In this document: piece by piece, positions 6,583 through 39,362 of the stretch
Numbering within the stretch: position 1 is the stretch's first letter
How the letters are laid out: the number at the start of each line of letters is the position of its first letter
Assembly (NCBI GenBank): GCA_903789375.1
Contig: CAIFEB010000004.1
Span: forward strand, 65,289-129,288
Reading direction: 5' to 3'
From: an uncultured Eggerthellaceae bacterium
Lineage (GTDB): Bacteria > Actinomycetota > Coriobacteriia > Coriobacteriales > Eggerthellaceae
Length of the DNA: 64,000 nucleotides
The notes under the pieces: generated by a model
The model's input: the letters and a program-made list of their open reading frames with translations, nothing else
Database searches by the model: none
What the model was told of the DNA's origin: nothing
Made by a program: the position numbers and the translations under genes

Positions 6583-6903
6583 ATCGTCGGTTTGTTCGCC
6601 GTCATCACGTTCTACATCGACCGCGCGCTGCGCAAGCGCGCGAAGGCGAAGCATGACGCCGTAAAGGTGAGCGAAGCGTAGGTCGCCGATTCCCATGCGG
6701 CGAAAGCAGACTCTCTCTCGCGGAGCGCGCGGGGCGATTGCTCCGCGCGCTCCATTCGTTTGCGCTCTTCGCCTCACGACCCGCACTGGCGTCCCTCGTG
6801 CAAATGCGGAGCGCCCGGACTACCCGAGCGCTCCGCTTTTTATCTATCCACGAGGGGTGCTGACCCCTCGCGTATCTTCGTCAGCGTGTCCGTGCCAGCG
6901 AAT

Positions 6904-9762
6904 CTACGCCATCGTGGCCTCGTAGCCGGCATCGACGACGGCGTCGATGAGCGCCTGATCGTCGACATCGGAGGAGAGTTCCACGACCGCGTTCTTGTCG
7001 TCGAGGCTCACGCGCGCCTTCTCGACGCCCTCCACGCCCTCGAGCGCCTTCGTCACATGGGCGACGCAGTGGTTGCACATCATGCCCTCAACGTTGATCG
7101 TCTTCTCCATTGCAGCTTCCTTTCGTGTCGGTTCGTTCGTATCCAAAGCCGCCCCTGCGGCTCCGTTACCCTGAGAATGTGCCGCGGCGGCGACACCCGT
7201 AGGTTCGCCCGCAGCGCCTGCACCAGCGGTGCTTGCGTCCTGGGCACCAGCGTCAATGGCGGTCGCGCCCTGGGCACCAGCGCCCGCGCCAGCTGCGCCC
7301 GCTCCGGCAGCGTTCGCCTGCGAAGCCTTCTGCTGGCGCACAACCGTATCGGTCGAGCGCGCCTCCGCAGCAATCTGCGGCGCGCCTGCCTCGGATGCCA
7401 CCTGCTTCCCCTCGCTCTCGGTCGCGAAGGTCGACTCCTCGTCGGCGCCCGTCATGAAACGCGGCTTCCATCCGCGCAGACGCAGCGCGTTGCCGACGAC
7501 GGTGACCGAGCTTACGCTCATTGCCGCCGCGCCGATCATCGGGTTGATCTGCAGGCCCGCCCACGCGAACACGCCGGCTGCGATGGGGATGCAGATGACG
7601 TTGTAGATGAGCGCCCAGAACAGGTTCTGGCGGATGGTGCGCAGCGTGCGCTTGGACAGCTGCACGGCCGCGGGCACGTCCATCAGATCGGAGCGCATGA
7701 GCACGATGTCGGCCGACTCGATGGCGATGTCGGTGCCGGCTCCGATCGCGATGCCGACGTCGGCAGTGGCGAGCGCCGGCGCGTCGTTGATGCCGTCGCC
7801 GACCATCGCGACCGCGCCCCGCTCGGACAGGCGCTTGACCTCGGTCGCCTTGTCGCCCGGCAGCACGCCGGCGATAACCTCGTCGACGCCCGCCTTGCGT
7901 TGGATGGCCGCAGCTGTGCGCTCGTTGTCCCCGGTCAGCATGACCGTGTGGATGCCCATCGCGCGCAGCTCGCTGATGGCGCGGGCGCTCGTGGGCTTGA
8001 TGGCGTCGGCCACGGCGATGGCGCCGAGGAACCGTCCGCCCCGCGCGAAGAACAAAGGCGTCGCGCCGTCGTCGGCGTACCGTTGCGCCCGTTCTGCCGC
8101 GTCGGCAACCGGTACGTGCGCGTTTTCCATCATGCGTGCATTGCCGCACAGGACCGTTTCCCCGTCAACCTGGGCGCGCACGCCTTCGCCCGGCACCTGC
8201 TCGAACGCGTCGACGGCAACCTGGGCAGCCGGGATTCCGTGCTCGTCCGCATAGGACACGATAGCCTGTGCAAGCGGGTGCTCGGAACGCTGCTCCACCG
8301 CCGCAGCGAGCGCGACCAGATCCTTCGCATCTGCGCCTTCCGCCGGCGCAACCTCGACCACGCCGGGCTTGCCCTCGGTGATCGTGCCCGTCTTGTCGAA
8401 GACGACGCTCTTCACGCCGCCCGCGACCTCGAGCGATTCGGCAGACTTGATGAGGATGCCGTGCGTCGCGCCGCGTCCCGTTCCCACCATGATGGCCGTG
8501 GGCGTCGCCAGTCCGAGCGCGCACGGGCACGAGATGACGAGCACGCTGATGGCGAAGTTCAGAGCGCTCTGGAACGGAGCGGCGACCAGTAGCCAGATGA
8601 AGAACACGAGGATGGCCACGCCGATGACGGCCGGCACGAACACGCCGGCGATCTTGTCAGCCGTGTTCTGGATGGGCGCCTTTGAGCTCGTCGCTTCGTC
8701 GACCAGAGCGATGATGCCGGACAGCACCGTGTCGTCGCCCGTGCGCGTGACCTTCATGGTGAAGTAGCCGGCGCGGTTGATGGTGGCGCCCGTCACGGCG
8801 TCGCCGGGCGCCTTGTCGGCCGGGACGCTCTCGCCCGTGATGGCGGATTCGTCGATGGACGCTGCGCCCTCGAGCACGATGCCGTCGACCGGCACGCCCT
8901 CGCCCGCACGGACGACCAGCGTATCGCCCACCTGCACCTGCTCGACGGGCACGATGACCTCGTTTTCGCCGACGAGCTTCGTGGCGGTCTTGGGCGCCAG
9001 GTCCATGAGCTTGCCGATGGCGTCGGTCGTGCGGCCCTTCGCGCGCGCCTCGAAGTACTTGCCGAGCGTGATGAGCGTCAAGATCATGCCGGCGGAGTCG
9101 AAGTACAGCCCCATGAACGCGGTGTGCGCCCCGTCAAGGTCGCCCACGCCCATGAGCGCCGCCATGACGAACATCTGGTAGACGCTGTAGCCCGCCGAAG
9201 CCGTGGCGCCCAGAGCGATGAGCGAGTCCATGTTGGGCGCGCCGTGGAACAGGCTTTTGAACCCGTTCGAGAAGAACTTGAAGTCGACGAAGATGATGGG
9301 CGCCACGAGCAGAAGCTCAGTGAGCGCGGTGACCATCATGTTCTGGTGGCCCAGAAACACCGCCGGCAGCGGCCAGTTGAACATATGGCCCATGGCCAGG
9401 TAGAACAGCGGCACGCAGAACACGATGGACAGGATCAGGCGCATGCGCATGTGCTTCTCGGCGGCGATGGCGCGCTTGGTCGATTCCTCGTGCGCGAGCT
9501 GGGCGGTGGACTTGCCCGACGTCTGCTGGGTCTTCGCGCGGGGCGCCGCGCCGTAGCCGGCTTTGTCGACCGCGGCGGCGATTTGGTCGTTCACACGGGC
9601 GACGTCGGAATCGGACAGCCCGGGCGCGTACTCCACCTCCATGCTGTTCTTCAGAAGGTTGACCGCCACATCGGCGACGCCCTCCACCCCGCGCGTGGTC
9701 TTGTCCACGCGCGACGAGCAGGCCGCGCACGACATGCCGGTCACATCGAATGTCTGCTTCAT
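6904..9762 (-). CDS. copA: Copper-translocating P1B-type ATPase CopA with N-terminal HMA domain and in-frame C-terminal CopZ-like HMA domain
   Basis: N-terminal GMSCAACSSRV (HMA domain), CPC motif VISCPCALGLATP, DKTGT and GDGINDAP. Ala/Gly-rich linker, then MEKTINVEGMMCNHC...; an internal RBS GAAAGGAAG sits 5 nt before that ATG (7109). Confidence 0.9.
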   Translation of the reverse strand: MKQTFDVTGMSCAACSSRVDKTTRGVEGVADVAVNLLKNSMEVEYAPGLSDSDVARVNDQIAAAVDKAGYGAAPRAKTQQTSGKSTAQLAHEESTKRAIAAEKHMRMRLILSIVFCVPLFYLAMGHMFNWPLPAVFLGHQNMMVTALTELLLVAPIIFVDFKFFSNGFKSLFHGAPNMDSLIALGATASAGYSVYQMFVMAALMGVGDLDGAHTAFMGLYFDSAGMILTLITLGKYFEARAKGRTTDAIGKLMDLAPKTATKLVGENEVIVPVEQVQVGDTLVVRAGEGVPVDGIVLEGAASIDESAITGESVPADKAPGDAVTGATINRAGYFTMKVTRTGDDTVLSGIIALVDEATSSKAPIQNTADKIAGVFVPAVIGVAILVFFIWLLVAAPFQSALNFAISVLVISCPCALGLATPTAIMVGTGRGATHGILIKSAESLEVAGGVKSVVFDKTGTITEGKPGVVEVAPAEGADAKDLVALAAAVEQRSEHPLAQAIVSYADEHGIPAAQVAVDAFEQVPGEGVRAQVDGETVLCGNARMMENAHVPVADAAERAQRYADDGATPLFFARGGRFLGAIAVADAIKPTSARAISELRAMGIHTVMLTGDNERTAAAIQRKAGVDEVIAGVLPGDKATEVKRLSERGAVAMVGDGINDAPALATADVGIAIGAGTDIAIESADIVLMRSDLMDVPAAVQLSKRTLRTIRQNLFWALIYNVICIPIAAGVFAWAGLQINPMIGAAAMSVSSVTVVGNALRLRGWKPRFMTGADEESTFATESEGKQVASEAGAPQIAAEARSTDTVVRQQKASQANAAGAGAAGAGAGAQGATAIDAGAQDASTAGAGAAGEPTGVAAAAHSQGNGAAGAALDTNEPTRKEAAMEKTINVEGMMCNHCVAHVTKALEGVEGVEKARVSLDDKNAVVELSSDVDDQALIDAVVDAGYEATMA

Positions 9763-27590: not shown

Positions 27591-27601
27591 CGCCCGCATG
27601 A

Positions 27602-27673
27602 GTCACTTTGCCTGGCATTTTGTCTCATTGTGGAGATGTCTCCACAATGAGACAAAATGCCAGGCAAAGTGAC
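27602..27673. repeat. 72-bp perfect palindromic repeat element, copy 1 (35-bp arms, 2-nt centre)
   Basis: gtcactttgcctggcattttgtctcattgtggaga-tg-tctccacaatgagacaaaatgccaggcaaagtgac. Lies between the convergent SNF2 and TorD-like genes. A near-identical copy occurs at 36484. Confidence 0.85.
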
Positions 27674-27691
27674 ACACATGTCGGAGGCCAG

Positions 27692-28294
27692 CTACTCGCA
27701 AGCAGCGACGCCCTGAACAGCCAGCATTGCCACGTCGGTGTAGAAGTCGGCACCGGAACGCAGCATCAATATGCGTGCAGGTTCCAACCACAGCCCCATG
27801 TGCTCGGTCGCGAACTGACGGGCCAACCGTTCCGCCGTCTTCCGTTGCGCCTGGTCGGGAGCCTGCAGCTGCTGACGTTTCAGATACGCCAGAAACGCGC
27901 ACTCCGCCGCCAGCGAATCCGGAACCAGAGCGTCCACCGCTTCGGGACTTCCCGAAAGCAGCAGATAATCGAATCCGACCGCATGATAGCAACGCAGCAC
28001 CTGGTCGGACCGGGGACCCTGCCCGTGGCCGTATTCTCCGTCGCGCAAGTAGCCGTACATGCAGTTCTCGTTCGCAGGCACGTAGTACGTCCCGCCCGGC
28101 ACCAGAAACCGGTCGAAGTACCGCTGACGCAGCTCTTCCGGCTCAGGCCAGTCGCCGCACGACAGGCCGATTGCATCCGCCACCGTTCGCACGTCGCTCA
28201 GCACCTTGTCGGACGGCTCGTTGAGCAGTGCTTCCGCGCACACCTCGAGCACGACCGCCGCCGTCTGCGCGATCTGCCTGGTCTCGTCATCCAT
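27692..28294 (-). CDS. TorD/DmsD-family redox-enzyme maturation chaperone
   Basis: 200 aa with ...RQRYFDRFLVPGGTYYVPANENCMYGYL..., resembling the TorD signature. RBS GGAGGT. It is the last gene of the molybdoenzyme operon. Confidence 0.6.
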   Translation of the reverse strand: MDDETRQIAQTAAVVLEVCAEALLNEPSDKVLSDVRTVADAIGLSCGDWPEPEELRQRYFDRFLVPGGTYYVPANENCMYGYLRDGEYGHGQGPRSDQVLRCYHAVGFDYLLLSGSPEAVDALVPDSLAAECAFLAYLKRQQLQAPDQAQRKTAERLARQFATEHMGLWLEPARILMLRSGADFYTDVAMLAVQGVAACE

Positions 28295-28336
28295 GGGATA
28301 CCTCCGATATACAAGAACGGGTACCGAATGAAGGAA

Positions 28337-28386
28337 GCGGGGAGTGCAGCGGAAAGGGGATGTCTTGCACTCCCCGCAGTTTTCGC
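28337..28386 (+). terminator. Strong hairpin + T-tract oriented for + strand inside a minus-strand operon (between the dmsC-like and torD-like genes)
   Basis: 12-bp stem gcggggagtgca / tgcactccccgc followed by AGTTTTCGC. Confidence 0.35.
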
Positions 28387-28532
28387 ACGTCTGGAAAGTT
28401 TACGGATGGGTCTACCGATTCCAGAGTGCGACAAATGGGCAAACCTTCAACGCGGCAGCGGGACACGGACGCGGGATGCCTCGTGCTCATGCGCTTGCAT
28501 CCCGCGATCCGCCCTGCCCCGTCGCCCGCACG

Positions 28533-29390
28533 CTACATGGTGACCGCGGGCACCGCCGCCAGAACCACCAGGTAGCGCAGGACGAAGCCACCGATGAGCA
28601 CGCAGACCTCTGCGGTTGCGACCGCGCACAGAGGCCGCGCCTTCTTAAGCGACATCATGTCGATGACACAGGGTACCGCCAAGCCGACCACGATCAGGCC
28701 GCCCCAGAACAGAGGCGCAAACGCGCCCTTCACGATGCCGTCGACGGTCGCCGCGCCTGCAACTGCCATAAGCCCCGTGCCCTGCAGGGTCACGACCAGC
28801 AGGATGACCACCAGGCAAACCTCGATGATGGGCAGGACCGCCACCGTCTTCTCGTGGAAGGTGACACTGCGCATCGAAGCACGGTCGGCGATCTGCCCGC
28901 CCAGAAGTCCTGCGGCGAAACCGGTGCTGATGGCCGACACCAAGAACAGGATCGGCAGCACGGCCAGGTTCCACAGCGGGTAGGGCTCGGCCACGCCCAG
29001 CAAAACGCCCGTGTACACTGCCACGCACAAGCCGGCGATGATGCACAGCCAATCGAGGACTTTGGGCGTCTTCCTCTTGATGGCGTACAGCAGAAAATCG
29101 ATGAAGCCCGCAACCAGGAACACGGACAGAATCGCAGTGCCCCAGGTCATGACGGACCCCCAGTTGCTGAACAGGAGGATGAACCGCAGCGGATTGCGAA
29201 AGCCAGCCTTTGCGTCCAGCATCAGCAGCATGGTTCCGATGCCCACGGCTAAGAGGCCGATGAGCATATCGGCCAGGCACGCCTTGCGCGCCGTGGGGTT
29301 CTTCCACCCCAAAATAGTGGCGAAGGTGAAGCAGCCCGCACCCATGCCGGCAAGGAACAGGTAGCCGACGATCACTTCGTTCCAAACCAT
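28533..29390 (-). CDS. DmsC/NrfD-like membrane anchor subunit
   Basis: MVWNEVIVGYLFLAGMGAG... with 8 TM helices. RBS GAGGGGAGG. Starts 2 nt after the Fe-S subunit stop. Confidence 0.75.
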   Translation of the reverse strand: MVWNEVIVGYLFLAGMGAGCFTFATILGWKNPTARKACLADMLIGLLAVGIGTMLLMLDAKAGFRNPLRFILLFSNWGSVMTWGTAILSVFLVAGFIDFLLYAIKRKTPKVLDWLCIIAGLCVAVYTGVLLGVAEPYPLWNLAVLPILFLVSAISTGFAAGLLGGQIADRASMRSVTFHEKTVAVLPIIEVCLVVILLVVTLQGTGLMAVAGAATVDGIVKGAFAPLFWGGLIVVGLAVPCVIDMMSLKKARPLCAVATAEVCVLIGGFVLRYLVVLAAVPAVTM

Positions 29391-29392
29391 GG

Positions 29393-30022
29393 CTACCTCC
29401 CCTCGTACTTCTTGTAGACGTTGCCGCCCTTATGGATGGCCGAAACGCGCTCACACGCCTCGGTGTCCTTCAGGCCGATGTAGCGCAGCGCCGTGTCCTG
29501 GCCCAGTTCCTCGTGCAAGATCTCGCCGCCGCCGACTTCCGCCAGCCGCTTGGAGATGTCGCTTTCCGGGTCGTTCAGATCGCCGAACAGGCGCGCCTTG
29601 GTGACGCAGGTCGCCACGCACGCAGGCAGAAGCCCCTGGGTGGTACGGTGGTAACAGAAGGTGCACTTCTCCACCTCGCCCGTCACGTCATCGCACCAGC
29701 GCACGGAATACGGGCATGCCACCATGCAGTACTTGCAGCCGATGCACCGGTCGCGGTCGACCAGCACAATGCCCGTTTCGGGGTCGATGTGCGAGGCCTT
29801 GGTGGGGCACACGCTCACGCACGGCGCGTCCTCGCAATGGTTGCACTGCTTGGGCACGTTGGCGCGGTAGACGTTGCCGCCCTTTTCCGCATCCCAGCTT
29901 TCGACCCAGGTGTTGAACTTTGTCAGGGGAATGTCGTTCTCCTGTTTGCAGGCGACCGCACACGCGTTGCACCCGATACATAAGGAGAGGTCGATCAGCA
30001 TTCCCAATCGTTTGTTGCTCAT
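29393..30022 (-). CDS. 4Fe-4S ferredoxin-type electron-transfer subunit (DmsB/PsrB-like)
   Basis: Four Cys clusters: CIGCNACAVAC, CNHCEDAPCVSVCP, CIGCKYCMVACP and CTFC...C. Starts 13 nt after the catalytic subunit stop. Confidence 0.85.
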   Translation of the reverse strand: MSNKRLGMLIDLSLCIGCNACAVACKQENDIPLTKFNTWVESWDAEKGGNVYRANVPKQCNHCEDAPCVSVCPTKASHIDPETGIVLVDRDRCIGCKYCMVACPYSVRWCDDVTGEVEKCTFCYHRTTQGLLPACVATCVTKARLFGDLNDPESDISKRLAEVGGGEILHEELGQDTALRYIGLKDTEACERVSAIHKGGNVYKKYEGR

Positions 30023-30035
30023 AATCCCTACCCCC

Positions 30036-33000
30036 TTATGCCTTCTCGATCTTGTACATGCCGCCGTTGCGCCCAGGAGCTGCGGCGTTGTTGTCCGACA
30101 GATAGTACAGGGCATCGGTGATGGTGGGGTCGCGCATGGTGACCAGATGAATGCCTGCGGCGATGGCATCGTTGCCGTCGACCGTCTGACCGTCGACCTC
30201 CCACGACTTGGCGCCGTAGAAATGGTGCCCGTAGCCGTACGCCACGGCGAACGTGGTAGGCGCCGTGCCGGCGCGCACCATAGCCTCGCCGACCATAATG
30301 TCGCCGCCCGCGCTCGTGACCTTGACCGTGTCGCCGTCGGAAATGCCCAGCTTGGCTGCATCGTCGATGTTGATCTCGATGTAGTTGTGCTTGCACAGAT
30401 CGCGCATGATGGGGCTGTTGGACTGCATGGAGATGGAGCGGAAGCGCGGCTTGTAGTTGGTCGAGACGAAGGGGAACTCCTCGCGCGAGAAGTGGTCCTC
30501 GAGCAGCGACTGATCCGCCATCAGCTGGCCTGCCGCGTTGAGCGAGGCCGTCGGGCGCTTGCCACTGTAGGGGTTCACGCTCGTGCCGATGATCTCGGAG
30601 TACAAACGGCTTTCGAACGTCTGCGCGAAGGCGCTGCGACCGTCCTTGCCCTGGGCCATCTCGATGGGCCAGAACCGGCCGCCGCGGGACAGGACTTTCA
30701 GCACCTTGGGCCACTCCTCGGCGCTGACAGCGTTCTTCCAGGCCGCAGGTAGATTGTCGAGCGCCTGCAGCTTGATCTCATCGTCGGTGATGTCATCCAC
30801 GGGCGTCGTGTCGTAAGCCAGGTTGGCCACGGCCTTCAAGAAGAGGTCGCACGCATCGTTGAAGGGATGCATGGTGCCGTCAGCGTCTGCGATGGCGTTG
30901 TCGCCGAAACCCGGTGCGCCGCACGCTTTGGCGACGTCGCAGATGAAGGCCTCGTAGCTGGCATGGCGGCCGCCGGAGATCTCGACGCTTTCGGGCGTCT
31001 TAATGGGCCAGCGCACGGTGTTGCCGCGGCCGGGCCAGTAGCCCTCGTTCGTCACCACGCCGAAACTCTCATAGGGCGTCGTGTCGGGGATGATGTAGTC
31101 GGCCATGGACGCCATCTCGCCCATGAACACGTCGCACGCCAGGAACAGCGGAACCACATCCGGGTCGCACAAACGCGCGCGTACTTCGTCGTTGAATAGT
31201 CCCGGCGAGGCTTCGATGGTGTTCGACATCCAGGTGAGCAGGATTTTGGCCTTATAGGGGTACTGGTTGACAATCGACGTGAGAGCCTGGTTGTCCGAAA
31301 CCGTCGTGCTGGGGAACCACGGAAGCAGGGGCTTGGGATCGGCTTCGCCCTGCGCCTTACGGTTCTTGTACTCGTCGGTCTTGGTCCATGCGCAGGCATT
31401 GCGGCTGATGTAGGTGGCGTTCTTGGTGGAAACGGACGGCTTGCCCGCAACCGTGGCGATCTTGTAACGGGTACCATCGCTGGTCGTTGCCGCGGAATTG
31501 CGGCGCGGTACGGAGCCGCCGACCATCTGGTTGGACCCGATCATAGCGTTGAGCAGGCGGTAGCCCATAGTCGCCTCGGCGCCGTTGACAACAGCCGTGC
31601 CGCCCATGGAGTTTGCCGACGCCTTGACGCCGTGGGAGGTGAACTCCTTAGCCGTGGCCTCCAGGACGCTCACGGGAACGCCCGTGATCTGGGCGTATTC
31701 GTCCATGGTCTTCTGCATGACGGAATCTCGGAACATCAGGAAGGCCGTGCGAACCTTGACGCCGTTGACCTCGCCTTCGAATTCCAGGTCGCCCTTGCTG
31801 CACTTGGTGTGAAGCGCCGGTTCGCCCGTCTCCGCGTCGATGACGACGTATTGGACGATGGCCGCGCCCTTGGAATCGGTCTCACCGGGGTCTTCGATGC
31901 CGGCGTCGGCTGCCCGCATGAACTTGCGATAACTTGCAGAAGATTCGTCGACGATGACCAGGTGCGTCGCGTCGGTGTAGGACGCGTAGCCGCCTGCCAC
32001 GCCGGCTTGATAGTTGGGCAGCGAAAGGAACTCGGTGTTATACGCTTTGTGTTCCATCATCCAACGGACGAGCGCACTGCCGAACGCGTCGTTGGTAGCC
32101 GTGCGGATGGGATGCCACGTGATGTTGGGCGTCGTCGGGGTCACGCATCCGTTAGCTAAAGCAGGGTCGAACACGTCCATCTTGCAGCCCTTGTGGAGCG
32201 CTGCCATGGCGCGTTTGCTGATGCCCTGGAAGCTCTTGCCAGTACCGCCGGGGAACTGTCCCATGAACAGGACGTATTCCGCATTCTCCAGGTCGGCGGT
32301 GGTGTCCTTGGTGCCGGACTCAGATAGCGCACGCGCTATTGCTGAGCCACCTCAACTGGCGCCGTGGCCGTAGTTGTTGAGCGTGCCGAAGCACGAGGCG
32401 AAACGACCCGCCGTCGCACCCGCGCGCCCATCACCGCGACCGCCGAGCATGACCAGCTGATTGGACTTGGGACCCAAGTTGGGTTTGTCCGCATCCAGGG
32501 GCGTGGTCGTGTCGTGGATTGCCTTGAAACCTTCGATTTCGCGGTCTTCTCCCAGGTCGGCGAAGAGCTTGCCGCCCTCGGTGACCTCTGTGATCAGCTG
32601 ATCCCAGCTGATGGGCTTCCATTTTCCGGACCCGCGCTTGCCCGCGCGCTTGAGCGGCTGGGTGATGCGGTTCGGCTGCGAATAGGCGTCGAACGTCGCG
32701 TTGCCGCGGCCGCAGACGGTCCCCCGCAGCTGGTTGCCCTTGCCGTCCGCAAAGCTCATGGACCGATAGGCTTCCTCCAGCGGCTCTTCGAAGCTCAGGT
32801 ACGGGAACGAATTGTTGGGATTGTACGGGTTGCCGCACACGTTGAGCACACGGCCGGTCTCGCGGTCGATTTTGACGCGATTGCCGCACGAGCTGTAGCA
32901 GCCCAGGCAGGCGCTGTAGCGCACGACCACGTCCGGGTTGACCGTGACCTTACCCGTCTTGGGGTCGACCTTGGCTTCTACCGGTTGCCCCTGTTTTTGC

Positions 33001-33131
33001 TTTGGAAACTCAGCGTCGGCAGCGAAAGCGCTCGTGTCCTGCGCTGACAGTCCCACGCCTACGGTCGCCAGCGCGCCGAGCGCGCCTGCGGCTTTGACGA
33101 AGCTGCGTCGATTGAAGCTGAATTCTTCCAT
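30036..33131 (-). CDS. TAT-exported bis-MGD molybdopterin oxidoreductase catalytic subunit with an in-frame TGA (predicted selenocysteine) at 32352-32354
   Basis: RBS AGGAGAAAGGAGGGG precedes ATG 33131. TAT motif NRRSFVKAAGALGALA, N-terminal Fe-S motif CLGCYSSCGNRV...C, and molybdopterin domains. ORFs 32352..33233 and 30036..32264 are the same frame, separated only by a TGA in the context GHGAS-U-GGSAIA (compare FdhF RVUHGPSVA and NapA RLCMASAVA). Confidence 0.8.
32319..32346 (-). other. SECIS-like stem-loop 5 nt downstream of the in-frame UGA
   Basis: mRNA: UGA GGUGG CUCAG-CA-AUAGCGC-GU-GCGCUAU-CUGAG. Bulged stem with an apical G/U-containing loop. Confidence 0.55.
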
Positions 33132-33255
33132 AGCCCCTCCTTTCTCCTGACGAACAAGAAGTGGTGGCGTCCGCTGGCCGACGGCGCCGCGTTCTTCAGA
33201 AGGGAGGCGAGTCCTCATACTCGCCTGGTGCACCTGTCCCCTTATGAGGGCACTA

Positions 33256-33282
33256 TATCATAAATCATAGGGATTTATGATA
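33256..33282. promoter_or_regulatory. Palindrome TATCATAAATC-N5-GATTTATGATA in AT-rich promoter region of the molybdoenzyme operon
   Basis: 11-bp perfect arms. The half-site TATGATAC recurs at 33443 and in the GntR promoter. Confidence 0.45.
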
Positions 33283-33494
33283 CTTGTTATACAAACCTAT
33301 GATTCTATTTTTGGATAACAGGATGATGAAATGATGATTTTATAAGCGTGAACTGGGATAATGATAACTCTCGTCACCCGATGACGAAACTCATCAATTG
33401 TCAAGTTAGTAAACACATGTACTGATACTGGGGCGAATTCGAAGCCAGGCATATGATACTTGGCTCTATCGACAGACGTGACCTGCACCCGCCA

Positions 33495-33532
33495 GTGTGC
33501 GAAAAATCGACGATATTGTATTTTTCGCACAC
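33495..33532. promoter_or_regulatory. Palindrome GTGTGCGAAAAAT-N12-ATTTTTCGCACAC
   Basis: 13-bp perfect arms, just downstream of the AAA ATPase gene and upstream of the molybdoenzyme operon. Confidence 0.4.
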
Positions 33533-33568
33533 TGACAAAGGTGTCTCACCCGCGCCGTTGCCCTCTCT

Positions 33569-34870
33569 TTATTCCCATATCGACTTATTTCCAATAGCGT
33601 AAAGCGGCACGTTGCGCATCCAATTCTGGTCGCGGTAAGACGCCAGCGAAAATCGCCTGCAGTTCATGTCCGCGAAGCGCTTATTGAAAGCAGCCAGGCT
33701 CTTTGAACGCAGATTCTCTTCCGCTTTCACTTCGATGGGATAGATTCTCCCCTCGTCCTGAACCAGAAAGTCAATTTCCCCACTCGAATTTTCGGCAGAC
33801 CAGTAGAAGGGGTCCAGCCCGCACGACGAAATCAGCTGCTGACACACGTACTGTTCCGTCAAAGCGCCCTTGAACTCGGTAAACACACGGTTTTCCTCGA
33901 GCACCGCGGACGGATTCAAATCACACAGGGCGCCCAGCAGCCCAACATCGACCAAAAAGACCTTGTAGGCGACCGCATCGGGATACGAAGACAGCGGAAG
34001 TCCCGGCTTGCTCACACGCCGCACCTTGCGGATAAGGCCCGCTTGCTCAAGCCACACCAGGCATTCTTCGAAATCCGACGCTCGGGCGCCCTTGCGGACC
34101 TGGCCGAACACGAATTTCTTATTCTCTTTGGAAAGGTGCTTCGGTATGGAATCCCACACGAGCATCGTACGAGCCAGAAGGCGCGGAGGTATGTGCTTTG
34201 CGAAGTCGCGCACGTAGCCATCGAGGATTTCGTACTGGATGGCACGGGCAGTCTTGAAATCGCCCCCGTCTGCAAAGGCAACCACCGCTTCAGGCATGCC
34301 TCCGACAAGGTAATACTGTTTCAACAGATCGGAAAACCTTCTCTCAAGCGCATCGATAGTAGACGTATCGCCCGTCCGAACAAGATCGGCGAACCGCTTA
34401 TTATCGGTAGCGTCCAGAAATTCCAGGAAGCTGAGCGGATACAAATCCAGCATGTTCACCTTGCCAACGGGGAAACCCGTGCCCTCGGTTGCGGAAACGC
34501 CCAGAAGCGACCCAGCGGCTGCGACAGCATACTGGGGCGCGTCTTCGCAGAAATATTTAAGCGACGTGATGGCTCGAGGACACGATTGCACCTCGTCCAG
34601 CACGATGAGCGTACGATCCGGCCGGATATCGCAATCAAGCTCAAGGGACAACGCAGCGACAATCCGCGGGATGTTGAAATCGGAATCGAAGAAGCCTCGC
34701 GCCACGGAATCGCTGTCGAGGCTGACGTATGCGACATTTTCGAATTCGGTCTTACCGAATTCCTTGAGCAGCCAGGTTTTCCCGACCTGGCGGGCACCGT
34801 TCAGAACGAGGGGCTTTCTCCTGGGGCTGTGTTTCCAGTCTATGAGACGTTCCATCAGGGTTCTGTCCAT
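33569..34870 (-). CDS. AAA+ ATPase of the AAA_14/DUF4143 type (COG1373-like)
   Basis: Walker A LVLNGARQVGKT and Walker B LIVLDEVQ, with a C-terminal DUF4143-like region. AT-richer than its surroundings. ATG 34870; the track's TTG 34885 lies inside the palindrome. Confidence 0.7.
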   Translation of the reverse strand: MDRTLMERLIDWKHSPRRKPLVLNGARQVGKTWLLKEFGKTEFENVAYVSLDSDSVARGFFDSDFNIPRIVAALSLELDCDIRPDRTLIVLDEVQSCPRAITSLKYFCEDAPQYAVAAAGSLLGVSATEGTGFPVGKVNMLDLYPLSFLEFLDATDNKRFADLVRTGDTSTIDALERRFSDLLKQYYLVGGMPEAVVAFADGGDFKTARAIQYEILDGYVRDFAKHIPPRLLARTMLVWDSIPKHLSKENKKFVFGQVRKGARASDFEECLVWLEQAGLIRKVRRVSKPGLPLSSYPDAVAYKVFLVDVGLLGALCDLNPSAVLEENRVFTEFKGALTEQYVCQQLISSCGLDPFYWSAENSSGEIDFLVQDEGRIYPIEVKAEENLRSKSLAAFNKRFADMNCRRFSLASYRDQNWMRNVPLYAIGNKSIWE

Positions 34871-34882
34871 GGTATCGCCTTT

Positions 34883-34936
34883 CAATTTTACGTCCTTAAA
34901 AATGTATATTACTACATTTTTAAGGACGTAAAATTG
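34883..34936. repeat. AT-rich perfect palindrome with 24-bp arms, overlapping the 5' end of the AAA ATPase gene
   Basis: caattttacgtccttaaaaatgta-tattac-tacatttttaaggacgtaaaattg. Confidence 0.8.
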
Positions 34937-35005
34937 ATTGATACAACAATTTTCAGGCTGATGATTCCGAATGAATCCGCCCGAGTCAACTGTCTCATGC
35001 GATTC

Positions 35006-35932
35006 CTATTTCGCCACGTCATCCAAGCCGCTGAAGGCATCGGACAGGTCGCTGGGCAGCACGACCACGCCGCCGCGTTCCTTGACGCTGTCGGACACCA
35101 GGTTCATAGCACGCAGCTTGAGCGCCCCGTCTTCCTGGCGGTACTTGCGGGCGGCGTCCACGTACATATCCGCAATCTGCTCTTCGGATTCGGCAATGAG
35201 CATGCGAGCGTTGAACTCGCGTTCGGCCCGCGCTTCGATCGACATGGATTCCTGCAGGTCCTCGGGGATTTCGATGTTGCGGATTTCCACGCCCAGGATG
35301 TTGACGCCCCAGTCAGTGGTCTTTTTAGCCAGAGTGTTGAAGATTTCCTCGTCCAGCTGACGCCGGCGCATGCCCATCTCCGATGCGTTGAGTCCGCCGA
35401 TGGCGTCGCGCAGCGTGGTCTGGGCGACCAGGAGCACGGCCTCCCCCACCTCGCTCACTTCGAAGCAGGCATCTTTGGCGTTCCACACGACCCAGAACAA
35501 GACGGCGTCCACATCCACGGGGACCAAGTCGGACGTGAGCGTTTTCTCCGCCTTGACCGTGGTCGTGCGCAGACGCATGTCCACGGTCGAGGTCACGTAC
35601 TCGATGAAGGGGATGATGAACACGGCGCCCGGACCGCTTACACGGTTGAACTTGCCGAACCGCGTGACCACGGCGTTTTCCCACTCCATAACCACGTGGA
35701 AGCTCATCAAAAACATGAGCGCCGCCGCGACGCCCGCAAGGAAGAGCGGCACTGACTGCAGCTGCCAGGCTATCGCGGTGAAGATCAGAAACACGATTGC
35801 GGATGCACAGGCGCGAAGCGCATTGGCTCCCACGCGACTGACCTTGAGCATACGGATGCCATGCGGCTCAACCTCTTCGGATTGGTCGCCTTTTTCAAGG
35901 CTGGGATCCACGAACGCTTCCTTTTCGGCCAT
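35006..35932 (-). CDS. SPFH/band-7 (stomatin/HflC-like) membrane protein
   Basis: N-terminal TM segment, then VVTRFGKFNRVSGPGAVFIIPFIEY...DLVPVDVDAVLFWVV... SPFH core. RBS GAGGGGG. Confidence 0.8.
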   Translation of the reverse strand: MAEKEAFVDPSLEKGDQSEEVEPHGIRMLKVSRVGANALRACASAIVFLIFTAIAWQLQSVPLFLAGVAAALMFLMSFHVVMEWENAVVTRFGKFNRVSGPGAVFIIPFIEYVTSTVDMRLRTTTVKAEKTLTSDLVPVDVDAVLFWVVWNAKDACFEVSEVGEAVLLVAQTTLRDAIGGLNASEMGMRRRQLDEEIFNTLAKKTTDWGVNILGVEIRNIEIPEDLQESMSIEARAEREFNARMLIAESEEQIADMYVDAARKYRQEDGALKLRAMNLVSDSVKERGGVVVLPSDLSDAFSGLDDVAK

Positions 35933-36029
35933 GACTACCCCCTCGTACTACCGCCTGCATCGCAGCGCTTGGGACGGTTCCGCTTGCAACGTCGTCGGCG
36001 AATTTCCGCAGCGCATTGCAGCGTCGCCG

Positions 36030-36413
36030 CTAGCCCTTGTAGTTTTTCAGCTGCTCCTCGAAACGAAGCTTGAGCTCGTCGGACGTCATGTTGGCATCCT
36101 TTGCCGCCTCCATCAGCTCGTTTAAGATCAGGTCGACGGGCGATTCCGGAAGATCCATGGTCTCGGGGGACACCTCCGCTACGTACGACCGCCGACCGCG
36201 GCTGCTCACGATCAACCCGTCCAGCTCCAAGTCCTGGTAGACCTTGTGGACAGTGTTGTAGTTGATGCCCAGCTTGTTTGCCAGCTCGCGCACCGTCGGC
36301 AGGACGTCTCCTGCCTTCAGTTTGCCCGACTTGATCAGAAACACCAGATGGTTGCGCACTTGCACCCAGACAGGGACACCCGAATGCTCGTCTATGCTGA
36401 ATGTATCGACCAT
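36030..36413 (-). CDS. GntR-family (YtrA-like) transcriptional regulator
   Basis: wHTH motif: VPVWVQVRNHLVFLIKSGKLKAGDVLPTVRELANKLGINYNTVHKVYQDL. Start at MVDTFS; the track ORF extends to 36476. Confidence 0.75.
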   Translation of the reverse strand: MVDTFSIDEHSGVPVWVQVRNHLVFLIKSGKLKAGDVLPTVRELANKLGINYNTVHKVYQDLELDGLIVSSRGRRSYVAEVSPETMDLPESPVDLILNELMEAAKDANMTSDELKLRFEEQLKNYKG

Positions 36414-36441
36414 GCGCCTTCCACTTCGTTTGCGGGTCTCT

Positions 36442-36463
36442 GTATCATACAGGTACATGATAC
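36442..36463. promoter_or_regulatory. GTATCAT-N8-ATGATAC palindrome upstream of the GntR gene (candidate auto-operator)
   Basis: Perfect 7-bp arms. Shares the TATGATAC half-site with 33256-33282 and 33443. Confidence 0.45.
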
Positions 36464-36483
36464 TCGCGGCAACCACCTACGAG

Positions 36484-36565
36484 CATGAGACACTTTGCCT
36501 GGCATTTCGTCTCATTGTGGAGATGTCTCCACAATGAGACGAAATGCCAGGCAAAGTGTCTCATG
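36484..36565. repeat. 82-bp perfect palindromic repeat element, copy 2 (40-bp arms)
   Basis: catgagacactttgcctggcatttcgtctcattgtggaga-tg-tctccacaatgagacgaaatgccaggcaaagtgtctcatg. Differs from copy 1 at two positions per arm, mirrored on both arms. Confidence 0.85.
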
Positions 36566-36585
36566 CCGTATGCGCCCCTGGCGGC

Positions 36586-37668
36586 TTATTTCGGCGTCAG
36601 CGTCGCCTTTCCGTTTCCGAAGAAGCCAGCTCCCGCCTCGTTGGCGTAGATGGTCCTTCCCGACGACGTCGTTCCCAGCACTTTCGTGTAGGAGGGTGCC
36701 GAACCTACGTAGACGGTAGCAGCACCGTTGGCGTTCTGTCCGAATCGGCCCATGAATTCCCACGTGGTGCTGTTCTTCTGCTGGACCGACCAAAGACCGT
36801 CCCAGCTGTCGGGAACGTCGACGGTGAAGTAGTCGCACTCGAAGTCGACGGCAGCTGCCCGGGCCACCTCTTCAGCGGCCTGTTGGCGAGCGGTCTCCTC
36901 CTCGGCAGCCTTCTGCGCTGCATCCGCTTCGGCTTTGGAAGTTGCCTCGTCGCGCACCGCGGTCGCCTTGTCCTTGGCGGATGCCACGGTTGCGCTTTCC
37001 ACGCCCGCAGCGGCAAGAGCGTCCGTCGCTGCGGAAATCTGATCATCGGTTACCTTGGATTCGTCCACCGTCTGATACTGGAAATTGGCCTCCGACGCAT
37101 CGAGCGTCGCATCAACCGCAGAATCCTTACCGACGGTAATCCCAAACGACATGCCCTGAGAAGCAAGGTAGGAACCGTCACCTGCGATGACGTCCGCCGC
37201 AGGCGCCACTTGGTAGCTACCGGGCGCAAGCGAAAGCCCCGTCCCCTCCGGCGTAACGGCGACGACTTTGCTCACGGCAGCGCCGCCCTCCTCCGTTCCC
37301 TCGACCGACAACGGGATCAGGACCCCGTCCGCAGAAGCTCCTTCCGGCAAGGTTACCGCGACGGCAATCGCGCGTTGCCCGTGGGCCTTCTGGTCGGATG
37401 CGTGCTGCGTCCACAGGACGGTGCAAAGGACGCAGACCGCCGCGACGATTGCCACGATCGCGGCAATCACCCAAAGCTTATCGCCGGAAGACTTCGCCTT
37501 CGCGACGGGGAAAGCCGGCTGGCTCGAAACGGGCACGCTTGCGCGCCTTTTCGCTCGAGCAGGCGTAACAGTGGAATAACCGTTCTCGTTCTGCGGAGAT
37601 GGGTTTCCGCACGAGGGACAGAATGCTGCACCGGAGGGAACTTGCTTTCCGCAAAAGGGACACTTCAT
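36586..37668 (-). CDS. Zinc-ribbon (CPxCG) N-terminus, single TM, and Ala/Glu-rich extracytoplasmic domain protein
   Basis: MKCPFCGKQVPSGAAFCPSCGNP..., then a TM helix LWVIAAIVAIVAAVCVLCTVLW, then a ~280-aa domain. The long ORF N-terminus upstream of 37668 looks non-coding. Confidence 0.6.
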   Translation of the reverse strand: MKCPFCGKQVPSGAAFCPSCGNPSPQNENGYSTVTPARAKRRASVPVSSQPAFPVAKAKSSGDKLWVIAAIVAIVAAVCVLCTVLWTQHASDQKAHGQRAIAVAVTLPEGASADGVLIPLSVEGTEEGGAAVSKVVAVTPEGTGLSLAPGSYQVAPAADVIAGDGSYLASQGMSFGITVGKDSAVDATLDASEANFQYQTVDESKVTDDQISAATDALAAAGVESATVASAKDKATAVRDEATSKAEADAAQKAAEEETARQQAAEEVARAAAVDFECDYFTVDVPDSWDGLWSVQQKNSTTWEFMGRFGQNANGAATVYVGSAPSYTKVLGTTSSGRTIYANEAGAGFFGNGKATLTPK

Positions 37669-37754: not shown

Positions 37755-39362
37755 CATGATACACGAAACAGGGCAACCCGACCGGAAAGAGCACGGCTGC
37801 CGCGCATCCCGCCGCTACCGCCTCCGTTCCACCGTTCGAGCGCAAGCCGCAACGGCAGAACGGATATCTTCCCTGCTCATAAGCCTGCGACCGATGGGGA
37901 TGCCCGCCGTTTCCTCGATGGCGTCCGTCACTTCCGTCCGGTAGTTGAACACATACCAGTTCTCGTCCAGGTAGGCCCCCTCCAAAGCAAGCAGCGCATC
38001 GGCGACCTGCGCCGCGTTGTAGCGCCAGCCCATGTCGCGACGGAGAACGCGCAGAGCGAAGAAGGCGGCGTAGCATATGGCGAAATGGGCTTTCATGTGA
38101 ATGCGGGCGTCCACCTCGTAGGGCATGGCGATGAAATCCGCCGGGATGACCTGGAAGGGCTCGTGGACGCGCCAAAGCTCGCGGTAAACGTTGAAGACGG
38201 CGGCGTCCGACCGCGCCGTCTCGTTGGAGACGATGCAAAAGACCTGCGAGGCGCCCGCTCCCGTCGCCCTGAAGGCGATCTGCTTGACCGCCGTCGGTCG
38301 CGCAGCCTCGCTCATGCCCGCACACTCACCCTCTCCGAAAAGGTCTCCGGCCAATACCGAGCGGGATTTGATCCGATAGCTCCCACTGCGAGCCATCGCG
38401 TACCCCGTCTCGTCGCGCGCCCACGAACCCGCTTCGACCGACATCGCATCCGCCGGCTGCAGAAAGACGAACCCGTCCCCTTGGGCGCAAACCGCATCCA
38501 TGAGCCAGGATGCCTGGGGAACCGTCGTCGCGACCAAAGTCACATGCCGCGCATCGAATTCCGCCTTCACGTCCTGAACCAAGTCCGCCACCTGGGCTGC
38601 CATCATTTCGCGCGGCACGATCCGATACGCCAGGGGAATCCCGTCGGCATCGATCGCCAGGCACAGACGTCCCCACTCCCCCGCGGCCATCTCATCGGGC
38701 CCTCCGGCGGATATCGTCTGCGACCAAGGGAAGGTGTAGTTGCTCAGAACCACGCGCACGTCAGACAGGGCACGATCTCCCCGCAGCTGCTCGTACCGGC
38801 GGTTGAGCTGGTCCACAAGGATGCGGTCGCCTTCCGCAAACCGCTCGAACGCCCGATAGACCGCCTCGTAAGAATCGCCGCAGGCCCGCGGGAATTTGGC
38901 GCGGTTATTCCAGGTTTCGCGCACGGGCACGGCGTGCATCATGCGCGCGGCGACCACCAGGTCGAAAATCCGCCCTGCATCGCCTTTGAACAGGGAGCTG
39001 CACCCGAACGCGTCCAGATAGCCCAAGGCGACGACGGCCCCCAAGGACACGGCGTTCGGCGTGTCGGACGAGATGACCGCGTTGCGGGCGATGGTCAGGT
39101 GCACCGGCTCGTCGCGCTCGTGCGCCCGCCGATTCATCTGGTCCACGACGGCGCGAAAGTGGGCGATAGGGTCGTCGTACCTGGTCGCGAGCTCGTCGAC
39201 ATATCCCAAAGACTCCACGGTCTTGGATTTGACCTTCCCCTGCGCCCGAAAGTTCTGCGCGATCGACAGGTACACCCGCCCGTTCTTCTTGCTCTGCTTC
39301 AGGTACACGGTTTCCCCCCTTCCTTGAAAATGAGACAGTGTCCCGTAGCTGTTTGTCTCATG
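37755..39362 (-). mobile_element. IS1634-family (IS4 superfamily) insertion sequence, ~1.6 kb, with imperfect terminal inverted repeats; ends approximate
   Basis: Contains transposase 37815..39308. Left end reads catgatacacgaaacag and right end (reverse complement) reads catgagacaaacagc, matching 15 of 17. No target-site duplication is evident. Confidence 0.55.
37815..39308 (-). CDS. IS1634-family transposase (DDE)
   Basis: Characteristic N-terminus MYLKQSKKNGRVYLSIAQNFRAQGKVKSKTVESLGYVDELATRYDDPIAHF. GTG start with RBS AAGGAAGGGGGG. Confidence 0.7.
   Translation of the reverse strand: MYLKQSKKNGRVYLSIAQNFRAQGKVKSKTVESLGYVDELATRYDDPIAHFRAVVDQMNRRAHERDEPVHLTIARNAVISSDTPNAVSLGAVVALGYLDAFGCSSLFKGDAGRIFDLVVAARMMHAVPVRETWNNRAKFPRACGDSYEAVYRAFERFAEGDRILVDQLNRRYEQLRGDRALSDVRVVLSNYTFPWSQTISAGGPDEMAAGEWGRLCLAIDADGIPLAYRIVPREMMAAQVADLVQDVKAEFDARHVTLVATTVPQASWLMDAVCAQGDGFVFLQPADAMSVEAGSWARDETGYAMARSGSYRIKSRSVLAGDLFGEGECAGMSEAARPTAVKQIAFRATGAGASQVFCIVSNETARSDAAVFNVYRELWRVHEPFQVIPADFIAMPYEVDARIHMKAHFAICYAAFFALRVLRRDMGWRYNAAQVADALLALEGAYLDENWYVFNYRTEVTDAIEETAGIPIGRRLMSREDIRSAVAACARTVERRR

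Follow-up and report, generated by a model that had tools for sequence, protein, structure and literature searches.

In Sulfolobus, YtrA acts as a repressor on two targets, namely its own operon, with a gene for a membrane protein in it, and a single further membrane-protein locus, and its core motif is flanked by accessory half-sites (PMC6746942, PMC4494728). The motifs published for YtrA regulators are long palindromes of about 24 bp that carry GT and AC far from the centre (PMC4494728, PMC6746942). Members of the Eggerthellaceae possess tens of respiratory-type reductases acting on host, dietary and drug compounds, the control of which has so far been ascribed to membrane-bound LuxR-type regulators; an adjacent LuxR-type arrangement is reported for 64 reductase genes of E. 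lenta (bioRxiv 10.1101/2022.12.26.521950). Here we analysed a stretch of 64,000 nucleotides from an uncultured Eggerthellaceae bacterium (GenBank assembly GCA_903789375.1, contig CAIFEB010000004.1, positions 65,289 to 129,288; hereafter the window), in which positions 27692-36476 encode, all on the minus strand, a GntR-family regulator, an SPFH/Band 7 membrane protein, an AAA ATPase and a molybdenum (Mo) oxidoreductase operon with an in-frame TGA codon.

A preliminary description of this DNA had regarded the region as a horizontally acquired redox island, the GntR regulator of which controls both its own gene and the reductase operon. The gene content described there was recovered, with profile matches for all cluster genes, and comparative footprinting lends good support, at the level of sequence, to the regulatory part of the interpretation. 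The view of 27692-36476 as mainly a foreign island is largely replaced by that of an Eggerthellaceae gene unit. As suggested by our comparative analysis, the region is likely to be the form taken here by a regulatory unit with two promoters that is conserved throughout the Eggerthellaceae and composed of a YtrA-type repressor, an SPFH protein and an Mo operon. Instead of a single island, three layers are distinguished for the most part: the conserved YtrA-SPFH unit, an operon swap that brought in a selenocysteine (Sec)-type TtrA-like enzyme, and a recent insertion of a defence-like AAA gene.

The GntR-SPFH module and its putative operators

The promoter of the GntR gene carries a 22-bp palindromic putative operator, GTATCATGTACCTGTATGATAC, at 36442-36463 (minus strand), exactly where GTATCAT-N8-ATGATAC had been noted before. 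Only 0.01 occurrences are expected when up to two mismatches are allowed; a copy with two mismatches is located at 33262-33283, and no other was found in the 64 kb. The operator lies between the boxes of a sigma-70-like promoter (-35 TTGCCG at 36472-36467, 17 nt, -10 TATGAT at 36449-36444) and covers the -10 box. With its length and its outer GT and AC the sequence at 36442-36463 would qualify as a YtrA-type operator, a palindrome of about 22-24 bp with these ends.

The second copy, a putative operator of the form GTATCAT-N8-ATGATTT on the minus strand (33283-33262), belongs to a conserved promoter/operator block of the Mo operon (33250-33316, minus strand; AAAAATAGAATCATA-N14-ACAAGTATCATAAATCCCTATGATTTATGATAT on the coding strand), in which three further elements lie on the same strand: ATGATAT (33261-33255) as an additional half-site, ATCATA (33303-33298) upstream, and TATGAT (33262-33257) as a probable -10 box. 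The 8-mer TATGATAC common to the promoters was matched three times in 64 kb, compared to 0.17 expected, and none of 100 shuffles reached this number. Its further copy, mentioned in the preliminary description, does exist, at 33452-33459 of the plus strand and not at 33443, which was the only error found there. This copy, of uncertain status, is located about 170 nt upstream of the main operator of the Mo operon, inside or at the edge of inserted DNA and outside the conserved promoter block. The arrangement TATCATAAATC-N5-GATTTATGATA was recovered precisely at 33256-33282. As a functional unit this palindrome with 11-nt arms was rejected because its arms are 29 nt apart in one of the closest relatives (L002), the conserved geometry being GTATCRT-N8-ATGAT with extra half-sites.

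Our comparison with fetched loci of relatives, which are mostly metagenomic and carry L numbers (among them Slackia, L094; a common gut species, L096; and Arabiibacter, L098), revealed the putative operator [G/T]TATCRT-N8-A[T/G/C]GAT over the -10 box of the GntR promoter in 17 distinct variants from 64 loci, with conserved arms and varying spacers. The GntR promoter reads GTATCAT-GTA(C/A)(C/T)TGT-ATGATAC in the window, L002 and L091, GTATCAT-ACGCCCCA-ATGATAC in Arabiibacter, TTATCAT-ACGACTAG-ATGATAC in the commonest gut lineages, and takes the degenerate form GTATCRT-N8-AGGATTT in Slackia and L096. The Mo promoter block of about 60 bp is as well alignable across genera (AAAAAGAATCATA-N14-ACAAGTATCRYAAATYNNTATGATTTATGATAY), in the window, L002 and L091, where a TtrA-like operon follows, and in L094, L096, L098, L099, L100, L107, L113 and L119, where the operon is of a sulfite-oxidase type. 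It holds GTATCRY-N8-ATGAT in the geometry of the GntR site, a further half-site 7 nt on and the upstream ATCATA; in L117 and L134 the site is the almost perfect TATCAT-N8-ATGATAC. Among 1.58 Mb of fetched loci the 12-mer ATGATTTATGAT was present at these Mo promoters only. A relaxed operator pattern gave nine matches in 1.38 Mb of unrelated control loci, mostly AT-richer than the window; it had no further match in the window and none in the TtrA-like loci with LuxR-type regulators (L085, L086, L089 and L157). The shared half-site is real and conserved, and the putative operator type occurs in the GntR and Mo-operon promoters of every lineage examined. The earlier idea of a shared regulator gains support from these conserved sites, which would fit the YtrA-type motif (PMC4494728, PMC6746942).

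The common motif might alternatively reflect nothing but two similar core promoters, or the site of an unlinked regulator, the GntR protein controlling no operon besides, at most, its own. In both promoters TATGAT makes a good -10 hexamer, and since the common 8-mer partly consists of this -10-like sequence, some of the conservation could be that of a promoter and not of an operator. The half-sites of the Mo promoter are imperfect, its right one being ATGATTT and not ATGATAC and the extra one being shifted by 7 nt, and another regulator could recognise them. YtrA regulons consist mostly of single operons, and the majority of described regulators control only their own, usually that of an ABC transporter (PMC4494728). 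The SPFH gene and the Mo operon are separated by as many as three unrelated genes in some genera, and the substrate proposed below is drawn only from the likeness to a family whose TtrA cut-off, 1750 bits, lies far above the 578 bits scored. All these points weigh against the unit as we propose it. The left arm GTATCRT, however, is not a promoter element, and yet, in both classes of promoter and from genus to genus, it keeps its fixed N8 distance, although the spacer sequences differ. Moreover, the relaxed pattern is confined to the described sites in the window and missing from the LuxR-type loci, the operator motif and the GntR gene co-occur in every locus long enough to hold both, and the outer GT and AC agree with the GntR/YtrA signature (PMC4494728). 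Promoter likeness or an unlinked regulator is accordingly a rather improbable explanation of the motif.

Under the proposed two-promoter unit, a GntR dimer would most likely bind the 22-bp palindrome over its own -10 box, and self-repression is proposed because the bound palindrome overlaps this box. The same kind of site, accompanied by extra half-sites, would overlap the -10 box of the next downstream operon, the Mo operon; as the same site type overlaps both -10 boxes, the two promoters are proposed to be repressed together and released together. We infer binding of both sites and repression, and the release signal might be relayed via the SPFH partner or reflect the state of the cell envelope.

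The regulator itself (36030-36413, minus strand, 127 aa) is assigned to the YtrA subfamily of GntR proteins (PF00392, E = 1e-13, residues 18-78). Its AlphaFold2 model (predicted local distance difference test score, 83.7) comprises a winged helix-turn-helix, with helices at residues 15-28, 41-48 and 52-64 and a beta-hairpin at 68-78, followed by a C-terminal domain of two helices only (92-106 and 111-126), in line with the reduced domain of about 50 aa found in YtrA proteins; an effector domain is not obvious. Among PDB folds, 4ham and 6sbs (YtrA of Sulfolobus) match best, and the short GntR proteins 3neu, 4r1h and 3by6 match as well. Orthologues with 52-79% identity occur across the Eggerthellaceae, including Slackia equolifaciens, Gordonibacter, Paraeggerthella and Arabiibacter.

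The SPFH/Band 7 membrane protein (35006-35932, minus strand, 308 aa; PF01145, E = 5e-34), with a hydrophobic N-terminal segment in the hydropathy profile, is encoded directly downstream and its gene is probably co-transcribed with the GntR gene. An ABC transporter partner, a usual although not strictly defining trait of YtrA regulators, is absent from this downstream position, which is taken by the SPFH gene. In almost every related locus of sufficient extent, the SPFH gene comes next after the GntR gene, and the module was found in 58 metagenome loci, collected by GntR alignment, and in the named genomes. In L002, a second SPFH gene with an NfeD partner (5981-7373) is located divergently upstream of the GntR gene; because this second SPFH operon diverges upstream, the L002 operator falls in the divergent promoter region between two SPFH operons.

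Proposed exchange of the Mo operon, the AAA insertion and the bracketing palindromes

The Mo operon has the order A-B-C-chaperone. Its catalytic subunit (30036-33131, minus strand, 1031 aa) is a TtrA-like enzyme in the bis-MGD (bis[molybdopterin guanine dinucleotide]) family with a twin-arginine translocation (TAT) signal, a CX2CX3C..C cluster motif and Sec predicted at residue 260. Its start was placed at ATG 33131, preceded by the ribosome-binding site AAAGGAGGGG, and not at GTG 33233 of the longest reading frame, which leaves a leader of about 120 nt between the predicted -10 box and the ATG. The electron-transfer subunit (29393-30022, minus strand, 209 aa) carries four 4Fe-4S clusters (Fer4_11, E = 5e-29) and is TtrB-like, TtrB being its best NCBIfam match; the membrane quinol-interacting subunit of NrfD/PsrC type (28533-29390, minus strand, 285 aa; PF03916, E = 9e-31) and a maturation chaperone of the TorD/NarJ family (27692-28294, minus strand, 200 aa; PF02613, E = 2e-10) follow. 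Against the NCBIfam TtrA model (NF011567) the catalytic subunit scored 578 bits over residues 7-1011 of 1031, the next family reaching at most 118; the cut-off is 1750, and the protein is therefore TtrA-like and not a TtrA equivalog. Its partners scored 170 bits as TtrB-like (cut-off 416) and 43 bits as TtrC-like (cut-off 314). Two-component genes, TtrSR-like ones included, were not found in the cluster, and a PDB sequence search with the catalytic subunit returned weak local matches only. The enzyme is best explained, judging from these domains, as a TAT-exported, membrane-anchored Mo oxidoreductase, the substrate of which would most likely be an oxidised sulfur or selenium compound; the sole basis for this guess is that both enzyme types found behind the promoter resemble enzymes of oxidised sulfur compounds.

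Elsewhere in the family the usual target operon encodes two sulfite-oxidase-fold proteins (SoxC/SorA-like), a Mo cofactor dimerisation piece, a Fer4_11 protein and an NrfD protein; in some loci it is set apart from the SPFH gene by one to three unrelated genes. This layout is present in Slackia (L094), the common gut species (L096), Arabiibacter (L098) and most of the 58 metagenome loci. Eggerthella lenta carries the sulfite-oxidase-type version as well. The sulfite-oxidase-type operons extend over 9958-14464 in L094, 11735-16189 in L096 and 9977-14349 in L098, and their first protein has a weak multihaem-cytochrome-like N-terminal region. The combination of two sulfite-oxidase-fold proteins with a PsrB/PsrC-type iron-sulfur (FeS) and NrfD module appears to be an unusual pairing of undescribed function.

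The closest relatives of the operon in the window are metagenomic: L002 and L003 are 92% identical in the C-terminal part of the catalytic subunit, and L091 is 79% identical in GntR. The next-nearest operons, those of L085, L086, L089 and L157, are homologous at 63-70% identity, and each lacks the operator motif and has, divergently oriented, a GerE/LuxR regulator of about 500-620 aa. With their counterparts in the LuxR-linked TtrA-like operons, the FeS and NrfD proteins of the window share 69-71% and 47-53% identity, compared to 33-36% and 30% with the subunits of the sulfite-oxidase type. Likewise, the ribosome-binding region of the window, AAAGGAGGGGCTATGGAA, is like that of L086, while its promoter block is like that of the sulfite-oxidase-type loci. 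On the simplest reading of these sequences, a complete TtrA-like operon replaced the usual one behind the conserved promoter in the ancestor of the window, L002 and L091 lineages. In most genera, the enzyme under control would thus be sulfite-oxidase-like, and in the window lineage and its two relatives it would be the TtrA-like bis-MGD operon.

A separate event can be set apart upstream of this operon. The preliminary description had stressed the AT-richness of 33240-34940 and, above all, of the intergenic 33240-33560; computed GC contents of 51.5% and 41.4% bear it out, against 62.6% for the Mo operon (27692-33239) and 64.7% for the whole window. The AT-rich, lineage-specific insertion (33335-34990, approximate bounds, minus strand) holds an ATPase gene, its promoter-like site and downstream hairpins. 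The ATPase (33569-34870, minus strand, 433 aa; Pfam AAA_14 and DUF4143) matched the PADLOC PDC-S01 model PDLC04786 over its full length (E = 7.9e-171, residues 1-428) and is 48% identical to genes of Bacteroides plasmids. The GC content at third codon positions (GC3) of its gene is 0.67, compared to 0.88 +/- 0.03 in 27 flanking genes (z = -7.4), whereas the remaining genes of the cluster are only mildly low (z -0.6 to -3.7). No AAA gene was found at the corresponding position of L002, L003 and L091. In its place, between GntR-SPFH and the Sec-type operon, L002 has a 247-nt spacer and L091 about 1 kb of non-coding DNA. Because the AAA gene is missing in relatives, is an outlier in GC3 and matches PDC-S01, the AT-rich stretch represents one PDC-S01 gene that was inserted between two older operons at a later time. 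The borders of the insertion were placed by comparing sequences manually and with the help of the conserved promoter block, as the intergenic DNA is too diverged for a global alignment to be informative. A local AT-rich patch can stand for one inserted defence-like gene and need not mark the whole cluster as foreign.

In L091, a repeat-rich non-coding insert of about 0.3 kb that resembles a miniature inverted-repeat transposable element (7590-7900; 30-nt inverted repeats with 93% identity, 69-nt direct repeats) was observed; as this insert occupies the spot of the AAA gene of the window, the spacer that separates the SPFH gene from the Mo operon looks like a hot spot for insertions. The leader of the AAA gene contains an AT-rich perfect palindrome with 25-nt arms (34882-34937), 12 nt upstream of the gene start and just downstream of the promoter-like site TTGACT-17-AATCAT; this palindrome could act as an operator or as a barrier to read-through from the SPFH gene.

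The unit as a whole is bracketed by two long palindromes, one near-perfect and 81 nt long between the SNF2 stop and the chaperone stop (27596-27676), the other perfect and 84 nt long (36483-36566), ending about 10 nt upstream of the GntR -35 box. The copies are 94% identical, and the DNA hairpin of the second has a folding energy of -55 kcal/mol (z = -19.9). They enclose the unit exactly from the GntR promoter to the chaperone stop and are the sole two copies in the 64 kb; each arm has small inverted repeats of its own (GAGAC..GTCTC and TGCC-T-GGCA). Repetitive extragenic palindromic (REP) elements and the REPINs built from them are hairpins of about 80-110 nt made of two inverted units, with many extragenic copies and a REP-associated tyrosine transposase (RAYT) in the genome. 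The hairpin architecture of the palindromes resembles a REPIN, two copies being visible in the window. An independent short-read Logan contig (L001) matches the window at 100% identity, and its two ends fall within the two palindromes. The palindrome arm had no match in collections of genomes, metagenomes and viral contigs, and the whole element had none in plasmids and phages. Intrinsic terminators, integron attC sites, dif-like sites and IS1634 ends were considered and rejected, as a T-run, resemblance to core sites and a match to the insertion sequence were all missing; a sigma-54 promoter inside the arm was rejected on account of its spacing. The palindromes could belong to a species-specific family of extragenic repeats between transcription units, or be marks of a moved block.

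The latter option bears on the reading of 27.7-36.5 kb as one horizontally acquired redox island that brought GntR, SPFH, AAA and reductase operon together. In its favour, the 94%-identical palindromes of about 81 nt bracket just this 8.9-kb unit, an IS1634-family transposase of atypical composition (37815-39308) lies 1.3 kb from it, and GC3 is below the flank mean in all ten genes between 27.7 and 39.3 kb, among them that of a single-pass membrane protein of 316 aa with no family match (36586-37536; GC3 0.73, z = -5.3). The flanks of the unit differ among the window, L002 and L091, those of the window being ordinary chromosomal genes (SNF2 helicase, panD, panC, ThrRS, CorA and an ABC transporter pair). 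A search of 185,579 species genomes with the SNF2 flank gave best relatives of about 60% identity, and exact matches of PanC and the cluster proteins were confined to the sequencing run ERR4183115. The identities within the unit are mosaic as well: GntR (79% vs 74%), SPFH (83% vs 64%) and the N-terminal part of the Mo subunit (90% vs 83%) are nearer L091 than L002, while its C-terminal part (92% vs 89%) and the FeS protein (95% vs 92%) are nearer L002, which hints at later recombination within the unit.

The gene order, however, argues against a joint arrival: the general layout in Eggerthellaceae is GntR-SPFH with an operator-bearing Mo operon behind it, kept across genera where variable presence would be expected of an island, and flanks vary in the other genera too. 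The AAA gene, earlier counted as cargo with GntR and SPFH, is a separate and later insertion missing from the two closest relatives, so its AT-richness is no island-wide sign, and apart from this gene the GC3 shifts within the cluster are small. An integrase, a tRNA gene and a target duplication by direct repeats were all absent from the borders of the unit, the IS1634 copy and the two palindromes being what is found nearby, and long extragenic palindromes could merely form a genome-wide repeat family between transcription units. A single redox island is for these reasons unlikely. That the 8.9-kb unit bounded by the palindromes is a mobile, self-regulated cassette may be added as a possibility to the conserved two-promoter unit.

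The in-frame TGA of the catalytic subunit

Position 32352-32354 (minus strand) of the catalytic gene is a TGA that interrupts the frame at the Mo-ligand position (GHGAS-U-GGS) and is read here as selenocysteine. The aligned column is Cys, the ligand of TtrA proteins, in 61 of 61 full-length homologues. The remaining homologues are informative in another manner: 58 of the best 120 are fragments of 710-830 aa, nearly all of which start just past the TGA column, as would be expected had gene callers halted at the TGA. The source annotations list these C-terminal fragments as separate proteins, and a search of 1.84 billion cluster representatives added three N-terminal fragments that end exactly at the ligand position. 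The same TGA, with frames open on both sides, was found in L002, L091, L086 and L157, the proteins of which are 58-92% identical to that of the window.

A hairpin resembling a selenocysteine insertion sequence (SECIS) follows the codon (32313-32351, minus strand), with an upper stem AUAGCG/CGCUAU and a CGUG loop 21-24 nt from the U of the UGA. All five Sec-type loci share AUAGCG-CGUG-CGCUAU and a lower stem, 13 pairs in total, with one compensatory change from U-A to C-G, whereas the Cys-type homologues L085 and L089 have TGC and are devoid of such a hairpin. Its folding energy is unexceptional (z = -0.9). The earlier selenocysteine call is thus supported by the Cys column, the TGA kept in relatives and the hairpin after it.

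A true stop codon splitting a pseudogene, or a Trp codon as in the recoded Eggerthellaceae clade, would be the other ways to read the TGA. Only 3 of the 36 called genes of the window end in TGA, compared to 22 in TAG and 11 in TAA, and UGA-to-Trp recoding is known in some Eggerthellaceae (PMC13462651). An Rfam scan of 27.0-37.5 kb revealed no SECIS family, only spurious matches of microRNA models on the palindromes, and within the 64-kb window neither selA, selB, selC or selD nor any tRNA was found, tRNA-Sec included. Against these readings stand the invariant Cys at the Mo-ligand position of the homologues, the retention of the TGA in five loci with intact frames on both sides at 58-92% identity, and the hairpin at the right distance with its compensatory change, which is missing from the Cys forms. 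The recoded clade is of low GC and lacks selB, while most other Eggerthellaceae have the Sec machinery (PMC13462651). Recoding to Trp was rejected as well, since table 11 leaves the other long frames of the window uninterrupted and Cys, not Trp, stands in the aligned column. Stop or Trp is consequently very improbable, and the TGA is supported as a codon for a selenocysteine that would serve as Mo ligand. The low use of UGA stops is relevant to a published proposal for Eggerthellaceae, according to which Sec may come into use before UGA is reassigned (PMC13462651). In the table of prokaryotic selenoproteins of a 2026 review, the Mo/W enzymes are formate dehydrogenase and formylmethanofuran dehydrogenase only (PMC13188914); the selenocysteine form of a TtrA-like enzyme is uncatalogued.

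Relation to known systems

Taken together, the region may combine an undescribed, family-wide YtrA-SPFH switch with an uncatalogued Sec-ligated selenoprotein subfamily in the TtrA/SrdA clade, a joint reading that we offer tentatively, as somewhat short of an even chance. It would imply that a repressor devoid of an effector domain and an SPFH protein govern a quinol-linked molybdoenzyme that works outside the cytoplasm on oxidised compounds of sulfur or selenium, that the operon behind the fixed operator is exchangeable, from sulfite-oxidase type to TtrA type, and that present annotation breaks the Sec-ligated TtrA/SrdA-clade proteins into two fragments. A second regulatory logic besides the LuxR-type one, consisting of a small YtrA-type repressor, an SPFH partner and a 22-bp operator, would give a testable handle on one class of reductases, and the operator would serve as a simple genomic signature for locating the targets of the repressor. 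Recognition of Sec in many TtrA-like enzymes of Eggerthellaceae corrects split-gene annotations, adds a clade to the known Sec-using molybdoenzymes and predicts selenium dependence of this branch of gut anaerobic respiration. The case illustrates as well how an enzyme operon may be exchanged behind a conserved promoter.

In its regulator the unit resembles the YtrA repressors, namely YtrA of Sulfolobus acidocaldarius (PDB 6SBS), YtrA of B. subtilis, PmtR of S. aureus and Rv1152 of M. tuberculosis. They share a length of about 125 aa, the winged helix-turn-helix with two C-terminal helices, a long palindromic operator with GT/AC outer ends that overlaps the core promoter, and a membrane protein encoded alongside the regulator. 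By analogy, the putative regulon would be as tiny as that of Sulfolobus YtrA, which is made up of the regulator's own operon and a single other locus, with additional half-sites next to the core site (PMC6746942). The partner in the window is, however, an SPFH/Band 7 protein and not an ABC transporter, and the second putative target is a respiratory-type molybdoenzyme operon. The inserted ATPase gene corresponds to the candidate defence system PDC-S01 of PADLOC in its full-length match and in being single, of atypical composition and variably present, but here the putative defence gene is wedged between two operons that would be co-regulated.

The enzyme shares with TtrABC of Salmonella, and with the clade of TtrA, SrdA and archaeal Arr, a full-length TtrA alignment that is the best match by far, and with TtrABC the TAT signal and the TtrB-like FeS and TtrC-like NrfD-type partners. 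It differs in its score far below the equivalog cut-off, in the order A-B-C-chaperone and in having no TtrSR two-component system; moreover, the clade is described as Cys-ligated (PMC7331816), whereas the Mo ligand in the window would be Sec. Enzyme family and subunit set also recall the E. lenta reductase operons with transmembrane LuxR regulators (Dong et al. 2022, as cited in bioRxiv 10.1101/2022.12.26.521950), but the operon of the window has no LuxR neighbour and is located behind the GntR-SPFH promoter/operator. With the Sec-containing formate dehydrogenases FdhH and FdnG and with FwdB the enzyme has in common that Sec would take the place of Cys as the Mo/W ligand of a bis-MGD enzyme, specified by UGA and a hairpin; it belongs to another clade, and its Sec lies in the context S-U-GGS in contrast to the U-H-x-P of those enzymes.

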